A DNA stretch of 4,771 nucleotides from a virus (lineage: Duplodnaviria > Heunggongvirae > Uroviricota > Caudoviricetes): the IMG/VR virus record IMGVR_UViG_2778261502_000006. One strand, given 5' to 3'. Shown piece after piece: positions 2,704 to 2,780 of the stretch. How positions within the stretch are numbered: position 1 is the stretch's first letter; the number at the start of each line of letters is the position of its first letter. Under the pieces are notes generated by a model. It was not told the origin of the DNA, did no database searches, and saw only the letters and a list, made by a program, of their open reading frames with translations. Position numbers and translations under genes: made by a program.

Positions 2704-2780
2704 GTGGCATTAGCTCAGTTGGATAGAGCAACGGCCTTCTAAGCCGTGGGTCGCAGGTTCGAACCCTGCATGCTGCACCA
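2704..2780 (+). tRNA. tRNA-Arg, anticodon UCU (reads AGA), with encoded CCA.
   Basis: Cloverleaf by hand: acceptor GTGGCAT/ATGCTGC (7 bp, two G-U pairs), D-arm GCTC-AGTTGGATA-GAGC, anticodon stem ACGGC/GCCGT with loop CTTCTAA, variable GGGTC, T-arm GCAGG-TTCGAAC-CCTGC, discriminator A, CCA 2778-2780. The core is near-identical to enterobacterial argU as I remember it; the acceptor stem is different. Confidence 0.8.

Follow-up and report, generated by a model that had tools for sequence, protein, structure and literature searches.

The stretch of viral DNA analysed here (4,771 nt of the Caudoviricetes record IMGVR_UViG_2778261502_000006, referred to as the window) is laid out as a lambdoid immunity region, with a cro-like gene, a cI-like repressor and an early-left promoter on one side and an excisionase-like gene and a tyrosine integrase on the other (Table 1). 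Between the repressor and integrase modules lies a tRNA gene, tRNA-Arg(UCU), which is the subject of this analysis and which an earlier note on the same DNA had described as prophage cargo with an argU-like core and a divergent acceptor stem containing two G-U pairs. Comparison with related sequences makes it probable that this is a functional-looking phage-borne tRNA, carried in a mobile cassette, which supplements the scarce argU tRNA for phage genes rich in AGA and AGG codons. Its main interest lies in the combination of G3.U70 with A73 in an arginine tRNA, and in a covarying helix in the leader of the gene.

The tRNA-Arg(UCU) gene

ARAGORN detected a single tRNA gene in the window, a tRNA-Arg with anticodon tct and an encoded CCA, whose limits are exactly 2704-2780 (+). 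The Rfam tRNA model RF00005 matched the same gene (2704-2777, model positions 1-71/71) at 66.5 bits (E = 2.1e-13), well over the gathering score of 29 bits, flagging zero non-canonical pairs, and the cloverleaf is the minimum-free-energy fold. The gene forms a 7/4/5/5 cloverleaf with U8, A14, G18G19, U33 and a GTTCGAA T loop. It is identical to E. coli K-12 argU (dnaY) at 66 of 77 positions, and both share the anticodon, the D arm including A20 (with the same D loop, AGUUGGAUA), the anticodon loop, the T stem and the decoding of AGA/AGG. Of the 11 differences six are in the acceptor stem, one is a compensated anticodon-stem pair, and the variable loop, the T loop and the discriminator contribute one each, the last being G73 in argU and A73 in the phage tRNA. 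Bacterial arginine determinants are A/G73, A20 (the main one, in the D loop), C35 and U/G36 (PMC9976931, Table 1); against this list the identity set for arginyl-tRNA synthetase (ArgRS), here A20, C35, U36 and A73, is complete. The description of an argU-like tRNA-Arg(UCU) whose divergence is concentrated in the acceptor stem therefore stands.

Read directly, the acceptor stem is GUGGCAU/AUGCUGC, with the pairs G1:C72, U2.G71, G3.U70, G4:C69, C5:G68, A6:U67 and U7:A66, so that the two G-U pairs are adjacent. Relative to the argU-type stem, six of the 14 positions differ: pairs 4:69 and 6:67 are fully compensated flips, whilst U2.G71 and G3.U70 are each a single C-to-U transition. The earlier note had considered two G-U pairs in an acceptor stem unusual, which holds for their arrangement and not for their number; among 117 distinct stems from the phage loci fetched for comparison, 18 contain two G-U pairs, yet the pairs are in tandem in only three.

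Whether these pairs mark a decaying copy, as the earlier note had asked, was addressed through the distribution and variation of the gene. The identical tRNA core was found in six IMG/VR contigs by a pattern scan, and an IMG/VR pattern with the arms left free recovered GUGGCAU-type tRNA-Arg(UCU) genes in 79 viral loci. Members of this family are present in ~7 of 5,426 complete E. coli genomes at 93-99% identity. Exact patterns of the 59-nt tRNA core and of its 44-nt 5' part gave zero matches in 185,579 species-representative genomes, and we can therefore name no chromosomal donor. In an alignment of 28 distinct variants and argU (29 sequences), the cloverleaf was paired in 99.5% of cells and four pairs had changed on both sides, for example 29:41 from G-C to C-G in seven variants; the covariation score was reached by none of 500 shuffles, and slid controls dropped to 24-47% paired. 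U2.G71 is kept in 77 of the 79 loci, whereas position 70 varies, with U in 67 loci and C in 12, the C variants occurring in at least four sequence backgrounds, and A73 is replaced by G in some relatives. Damaged genes do occur in the family (L154 has U8G, L160 and L162 have mismatches in the anticodon stem and L155 an insertion of 2 nt; L numbers denote the loci compared), but the window copy has no disrupted stem, lost invariant base or low score. It carries no private mutation, its sequence being identical in full-length phages and prophages. The gene is thus intact and under structural constraint, and the answer to the question of decay is no: since the stem recurs across the family and each wobble pair is one C-to-U transition from the argU-type stem, the G-U pairs are a stable trait of the lineage.

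Table 1 Features of the window discussed in the text
Feature	Position	Strand	Remarks
Tail-fibre-assembly remnant	1-318	-	Fused to truncated YmfL gene
Second deletion junction	516..517	.	Truncated YmfL gene joined to tail-fibre-assembly remnant
YdaS/cro-like gene	664-921	-	
Operator-like palindromes CTACTTNNNGTAG	953-965, 1021-1033		Between cro-like gene and cI
cI-like repressor	991..1710	+	Helix-turn-helix and S24 peptidase; own terminator
Operator-like palindromes CTACTTNNNGTAG	1803-1815, 1826-1838		Overlap PL-like promoter
PL-like early-left promoter	1803..1845	+	Promoter scan; TTGCAA-18 nt-TATAGT at 1816-1845; points towards tRNA
Open reading frame, 74 aa	1942..2166	+	PHROG 1744, function unknown; first after PL-like promoter, upstream of tRNA
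ECs1072-family phage-associated gene	2108..2563	-	NCBIfam NF033230, 127.7 bits; PHROG 5286; convergent with PL transcript
5' leader hairpin	2625..2703	+	Core stem 2638-2648 with 2687-2697; folds, family helix statistics
tRNA-Arg(UCU) gene	2704..2780	+	77 nt, encoded CCA; ARAGORN, Rfam, fold, family covariation, argU/alaX comparison
3' trailer hairpin	2783..2801	+	ATCACG ... CGTGAT, 2 nt after CCA
Intrinsic terminator	2833..2880	+	GGCGGTACCAG, 18-nt loop, CTGGTACCGCC, then CTTTTTAC
Deletion junction	3250..3259	.	~2.8 kb of early-left genes of L128/L129 gone; short imperfect repeat at join
Excisionase-like DUF4224 gene	3534-3761	+	Downstream of tRNA
Tyrosine integrase	3761-4771	+	Downstream of tRNA

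Leader, trailer hairpin and terminator

The tRNA is preceded by a leader hairpin and followed by a trailer hairpin and an intrinsic terminator. A leader helix of at least 10 pairs which closes at most 4 nt from the tRNA 5' end is present in 23 of 25 leader types, compared with 12% of mononucleotide shuffles. When the leader arms were aligned, 94% of cells were paired, six pairs had changed on both sides (28 cells) and none of 500 shuffles reached the covariation score, although this alignment was registered by hand (the loop set to GAAA, with N for a bulge) and so leans towards structure. In 25 of 36 leaders the G-U pairs favour the tRNA strand, on which the helix is the more stable. Further upstream, the leader motif CACAAC (2628-2633) is able to pair with GUU|GUG, positions -3 to +3 across the RNase P site. 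In a control, however, in which 64 other tRNA-Arg leaders were folded with the 3' strand of the acceptor stem left out, 30% likewise paired with positions -3 to +3. We therefore dropped the idea that pairing across +1 to +3 is a special feature (a switch) and limit the claim to a conserved, covarying leader helix. A boxA-like reading of GUGCUCUU, in the 3' arm of the leader, was set aside as well; the motif lies inside the helix and the cassette is also found outside PL/nut contexts.

The trailer hairpin keeps its stem between relatives whilst its loop varies. Beyond it, the terminator described in the earlier note is present as an 11-bp, G+C-rich stem (2833-2843/2862-2872) followed by the U-run CTTTTTAC, a simple terminator scanner having missed it because the loop is 18 nt long. 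Versions of this terminator lie downstream of the tRNA in every genomic context examined. A 36-mer just upstream of and entering the terminator stem occurs in 33 viral contigs, and 24 of these 33 loci with the terminator module carry the tRNA. The only Rfam match in the window at E <= 1 is the tRNA-Arg itself, so that neither the leader hairpin nor a conserved block at 1858-1929 (see below) corresponds to a described RNA family, and an Rfam scan of eight related loci at the gathering threshold added only tRNAs.

The immunity regions preceding the tRNA differ among 14 viral-contig loci of the GUGGCAU type and the E. coli prophage relatives, and in all of them it stands ~420 nt ahead of one and the same early-left operon (encoding a 204-aa protein, a ParB-like protein and others). 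The same tRNA also occurs between the portal/tail and terminase genes of non-lambdoid phages, Salmonella phages SPN1S and SPN9TCW (Uetakevirus) and Klebsiella phage ST512-KPC3phi13.3, where it is already annotated as tRNA-Arg in GenBank and is accompanied by a homologous leader, trailer hairpin and terminator. These copies differ by the compensated change from G29:C41 to C29:G41, and the SPN1S type has G3:C70 instead of G3.U70. The tRNA travels as a mobile cassette made up of the 5' leader hairpin, the tRNA, the 3' hairpin and the terminator; the earlier note had missed that the gene is embedded in such a conserved unit. The covarying leader helix abutting the RNase P site is an undescribed feature of a tRNA precursor which moves with its gene between unrelated phages, and our literature searches found no report of a leader-tRNA-hairpin-terminator cassette or of a phage tRNA-Arg with G3.U70.

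Several related loci vary around the cassette. In L008 (986-1216, -) and in L164, a 224-bp insertion with a ~66-aa open reading frame lies exactly at tRNA position 71, creating the new 3' end ...AUGCUCCGCCA (a U2-C71 mismatch) and leaving the old CACCA downstream. Five tRNA-less relatives (L149, L150, L156, L161 and L165) retain ...CACCA before the trailer hairpin. The CACCA remnants and the insertions imply that recombination junctions cluster at the tRNA 3' end. In three further loci (L155 at 6637-6760, L157 and L162) a second, tRNA-like gene lies 78 nt ahead of the tRNA-Arg; ARAGORN calls it tRNA-Phe(gaa), with 43-44 nt inserted behind the anticodon, and Rfam scores it as a tRNA at 45.9 bits over 124 nt. 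Finally, an argU-like tRNA-Arg of the GCGCCCT/AGGGCGT type (L014, L029, L039, L045 and others) has a G1.U72 pair and is preceded by CGAAGT.CACTCTTCTCCGT, which resembles the 3' arm of the GUGGCAU-family leader, hinting that leader and tRNA may have been captured together from a common source.

Movement of the cassette between unrelated phage types, together with the commonness of tRNA-Arg-like genes in phages (1,429 phage records at distant sensitivity) and the six acceptor-stem positions at which the gene departs from argU, might also be expected if the tRNA were a counter-defence spare part, replacing host tRNA-Arg that is depleted or cleaved by toxins or defence nucleases and not compensating for codon bias. 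We regard this as very unlikely. The anticodon stem-loop, the usual target of such nucleases, is the same as that of argU-type tRNAs, with a CUUCUAA loop and no sign of an escape variant, and PADLOC gave no match for the genes neighbouring the tRNA, the ECs1072-family gene included. A module joining the tRNA to a defence gene was likewise rejected, as there was no PADLOC match and the neighbour is swapped or absent in relatives: the ECs1072 alleles found beside this tRNA share only 29-39% identity, and in further relatives the place is taken by another gene or by non-coding DNA. No defence system is known to us that is specific for tRNA-Arg(UCU).

The prophage remnant and its immunity region

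The integrase protein was found in 20 public contigs; the 175-aa version of the ECs1072-family product likewise led to source contigs, and its 151-aa version gave no match. The whole window is present at 100% identity in two independent assemblies, GCA_002233275.1 (L130) and GCA_013365775.2 (L133). Flanking host DNA (leuZ-cysT-glyW, pgsA, uvrC) is 99.9% identical to E. coli. The window belongs to a degraded lambdoid prophage of ~10 kb which occupies leuZ in a chromosome of the E. coli type. In L130 the order begins with yecA, a partial leuZ repeat, a HumD-like gene, DinI and a gtr-like O-antigen modification operon (a family-2 glycosyltransferase, an EamA-family membrane protein and a 612-aa protein). 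The window follows, and 127 bp separate its integrase stop from an intact leuZ. On both sides the element is bounded by a 126-bp repeat which takes in the 3' half of leuZ (L130 1199-1324 vs 11071-11194), which identifies leuZ as the attachment (att) site, and in five independent assemblies (L130-L134) the integrase adjoins leuZ. In L128 and L129 the identical 336-aa integrase instead adjoins frvX and the rha operon, at a junction without a tRNA, pointing to either a secondary site or a rearrangement of the chromosome between prophages.

L128, L129 and the 45-kb PGAP-annotated prophage of E. coli GDSC2BY4G (L001/L144) served as full-length comparators. They place two deletion junctions in the window, and replication, lysis and morphogenesis genes are missing from the remnant as a whole; the earlier note had missed that the prophage is a twice-deleted remnant. 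Remnants of early-left genes persist between the terminator and the excisionase-like gene. Positions 1-540 had no match among complete E. coli genomes by megablast, and the tail-fibre-assembly identity of this segment was obtained only via PHROGs.

These comparisons also bear on whether the tRNA-Arg could itself be an integration relic, marking a boundary of the element or the junction of two tandem elements. Such a reading could draw on the mosaic junctions at the ends of the tRNA, on upstream flank types which switch near it, and on the CACCA remnants and position-71 insertions described above. Yet the tRNA lies 2 kb inside the integrase end, with genes of one and the same prophage on both sides, as is also the case in the 45-kb prophage; the att duplication and the integrase are at leuZ, and no second, even partial, copy of the tRNA-Arg segments was found within the element. 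The attachment-site reading is effectively refuted and we give it almost no weight. With genes of a single element to its left and right, the att repeat elsewhere, a terminator that travels with it, and presence in some but not all of otherwise near-identical relatives, the tRNA-Arg is phage cargo, in agreement with the earlier note, which had placed it between the repressor and integrase modules and away from an att site. In this it differs from argU, which is chromosomal and itself an att site (for DLP12).

The immunity region is marked by the operator-like palindrome CTACTTNNNGTAG, with 6 strand-hits observed against 0.14 expected by chance. We read the sigma-70-like promoter at 1816-1845 as the equivalent of a repressor-controlled PL, and from this infer that the tRNA-Arg would lie in or behind the PL transcript. 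Between this promoter and the 74-aa open reading frame, a ~70-nt block (1858-1929) is 90-95% identical in otherwise unrelated phages, among them Salmonella phages 118970_sal3 and F1055, Citrobacter phage phiNP and Escherichia phages Eeyore and Flotzy. This block neither folds significantly nor matches Rfam, and the idea of a structured element of the put or nut kind at 1846-1945 was dropped, its fold being no better than that of shuffles (z = +1.6).

Codon supply, charging and comparison with known tRNAs

Codon usage was compared between the full-length GDSC2BY4G prophage (61 genes, 12,854 codons) and 50 kb of adjacent host DNA (55 genes, 13,669 codons), both with PGAP annotation. The prophage uses AGA at 7.8/1000 and AGG at 6.7/1000 codons, the host at 2.8/1000 and 0.8/1000, a roughly four-fold enrichment of the two codons together (14.5/1000 vs 3.6/1000), which make up 26.1% of arginine codons in the prophage and 6.9% in the host. 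In the five intact genes of the window the values rise to 19.2/1000 for AGA and 9.0/1000 for AGG (43% of arginine codons). Among individual genes, AGA/AGG account for 9 of 27 arginine codons in int (codon 3, in the sequence at 3761, is AGA), 11 of 33 in the DUF4224 gene and int together, 8 of 15 in cI (5 AGA and 3 AGG), 14 of 24 in the tail fibre and 8 of 10 in an acyltransferase, with other accessory genes also rich in them. The use of AGA by the phage genes, and the suggestion of a phage-supplied rare-codon tRNA drawn from it, are thus borne out by the counts, and the enrichment fits a supply of rare tRNA for regulatory, lysogeny and accessory genes. Phage tRNAs reportedly match codons which are over-used by the phage relative to its host, and synthesis of lambda Int is said to be limited by the rare AGA/AGG tRNA.

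In the lambdoid family the cassette heads the early-left operon, after the PL-like promoter and before the genes for recombination, excision and integration. In the reading we favour, PL or another promoter would drive transcription of the tRNA upon induction or infection. RNase P, together with 3' processing at the hairpins on either side, would release it, and ArgRS would charge it through A20, C35, U36 and A73. It would then supplement the scarce argU tRNA and allow efficient translation of int, xis, cI, the tail fibre and morons. The tRNA comes first in the operon and the AGA/AGG-rich xis and int come last, an order that suggests a simple model in which the phage tunes its lysogeny and excision proteins through tRNA supply.

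Several observations weigh against this reading. Scans of three contexts detected no sigma-70 promoter beside the cassette, the nearest candidate being the PL-like promoter ~860 nt upstream, and as cI is intact in the remnant, possible repression of PL could leave the tRNA silent. In the fold of a 186-nt precursor the leader helix outcompetes the acceptor stem. A prophage of E. coli ET5 has the same immunity region and terminator and no tRNA, which makes the tRNA-Arg dispensable. The capsid, protease and tail-tube genes of the full-length relative, its most highly expressed late genes, contain zero AGA/AGG codons, and any benefit of the tRNA would therefore be limited to accessory and regulatory genes.

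Some of these points would equally follow if the tRNA were a silent passenger, intact in this degraded prophage only because too little time has gone by and making no contribution to host or element, either because it is shut off behind a repressed PL or because its precursor is a poor substrate for RNase P. The loss of replication, lysis, morphogenesis and most early-left genes, the intact cI and operators, the failure of the scan to detect a promoter of its own, the disruption of the acceptor stem by the leader helix in the precursor fold, and the four damaged copies among relatives all agree with such a state. We consider it unlikely, given that the sequence is that of intact phages with no mutation specific to the remnant, that the same remnant with a 100% identical window recurs in two independent assemblies, and that structural constraint is clear across the family.

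The charging step of the favoured model, in which a phage tRNA supplements argU, is complicated by the second wobble pair. G3.U70 was the first tRNA identity determinant to be validated and is the major one for alanyl-tRNA synthetase (AlaRS; PMC9976931), it has been described as sufficient for AlaRS recognition, and human non-alanine tRNAs which acquire G3:U70 are misacylated (PMC11415595). In combination with A73 it is an AlaRS identity signal, one that the earlier note had overlooked. Bacterial alanine determinants are A73, G2-C71, G3.U70, G4-C69 and G20 (PMC9976931, Table 1), of which the phage tRNA-Arg has three (G3.U70, A73 and G4:C69), G2:C71 and G20 being replaced by U2.G71 and A20. Compared with alaX, a tRNA-Ala of K-12, it shares G1:C72, G3.U70, G4:C69, C5:G68 and A73, but differs in its UCU anticodon, in the two replaced determinants and in its argU-like body. 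As G2:C71 and G20 are absent we do not file it as a tRNA-Ala, and regard mischarging as a possibility only.

The pair recurs beyond this family. G3.U70 occurs in at least three other phage tRNA-Arg(UCU) lineages: the CCGCGCA/UGCGUGG-A type of Klebsiella phage HMGUkp2 (Straboviridae; L222, 1197-1273) and of contig L057, contig L038 (CGGGGCA/UGUCUCG-A) and Aeromonas phage TSW001 (L223, 1206-1282; GCGCCCU/AGGGUGC-G), so that the discriminator of these four loci is A73 in three and G73 in TSW001. Among ~94 non-Arg, non-Ala tRNAs of the same loci, a small and biased sample, it was seen once. The tRNA of the T4-like HMGUkp2 has D and anticodon arms identical to those of the window tRNA, but its acceptor stem begins with C1:G72, and it belongs to a multi-tRNA array in a 170-kb lytic phage.

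These features would be compatible with a dual-identity adaptor, in which AlaRS charges part of the pool and AGA/AGG codons are read ambiguously as arginine or alanine whilst the tRNA is expressed, the pairing of the leader with U2 and G3 across the RNase P site possibly gating maturation and so making the ambiguity conditional. Beyond the determinants shared with tRNA-Ala and the reported sufficiency of G3:U70, the presence of the pair in 67 of 79 family loci and its recurrence in other lineages speak for this idea. It is nevertheless improbable, as U2.G71 and A20 stand in place of G2:C71 and G20, a complete ArgRS set would compete, and heavy misincorporation of alanine would be harmful to carrier phages which are themselves rich in AGA/AGG. 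The toggling of position 70 between U and C in at least four backgrounds further implies that G3.U70 is tolerated rather than demonstrably selected, and the literature searched held no such phage tRNA. Whichever enzyme prevails, competition between ArgRS and AlaRS on a tRNA-Arg with G3.U70 bears on the in vivo robustness of the 'second genetic code'.

A rare-codon tRNA on a temperate phage is in itself an ordinary accessory gene, and relatives of this one are already annotated in RefSeq/GenBank. The Stx phage 933W likewise carries lambdoid rare-codon tRNAs (ileZ-argN-argO), including a UCU tRNA-Arg (argO), and the annotation of its record gives the cluster its own putative promoter and terminator features. 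The 933W tRNAs differ in having unrelated acceptor stems and arms, and in forming a three-gene array in the late region, between Q and stx, rather than a single early-left gene.

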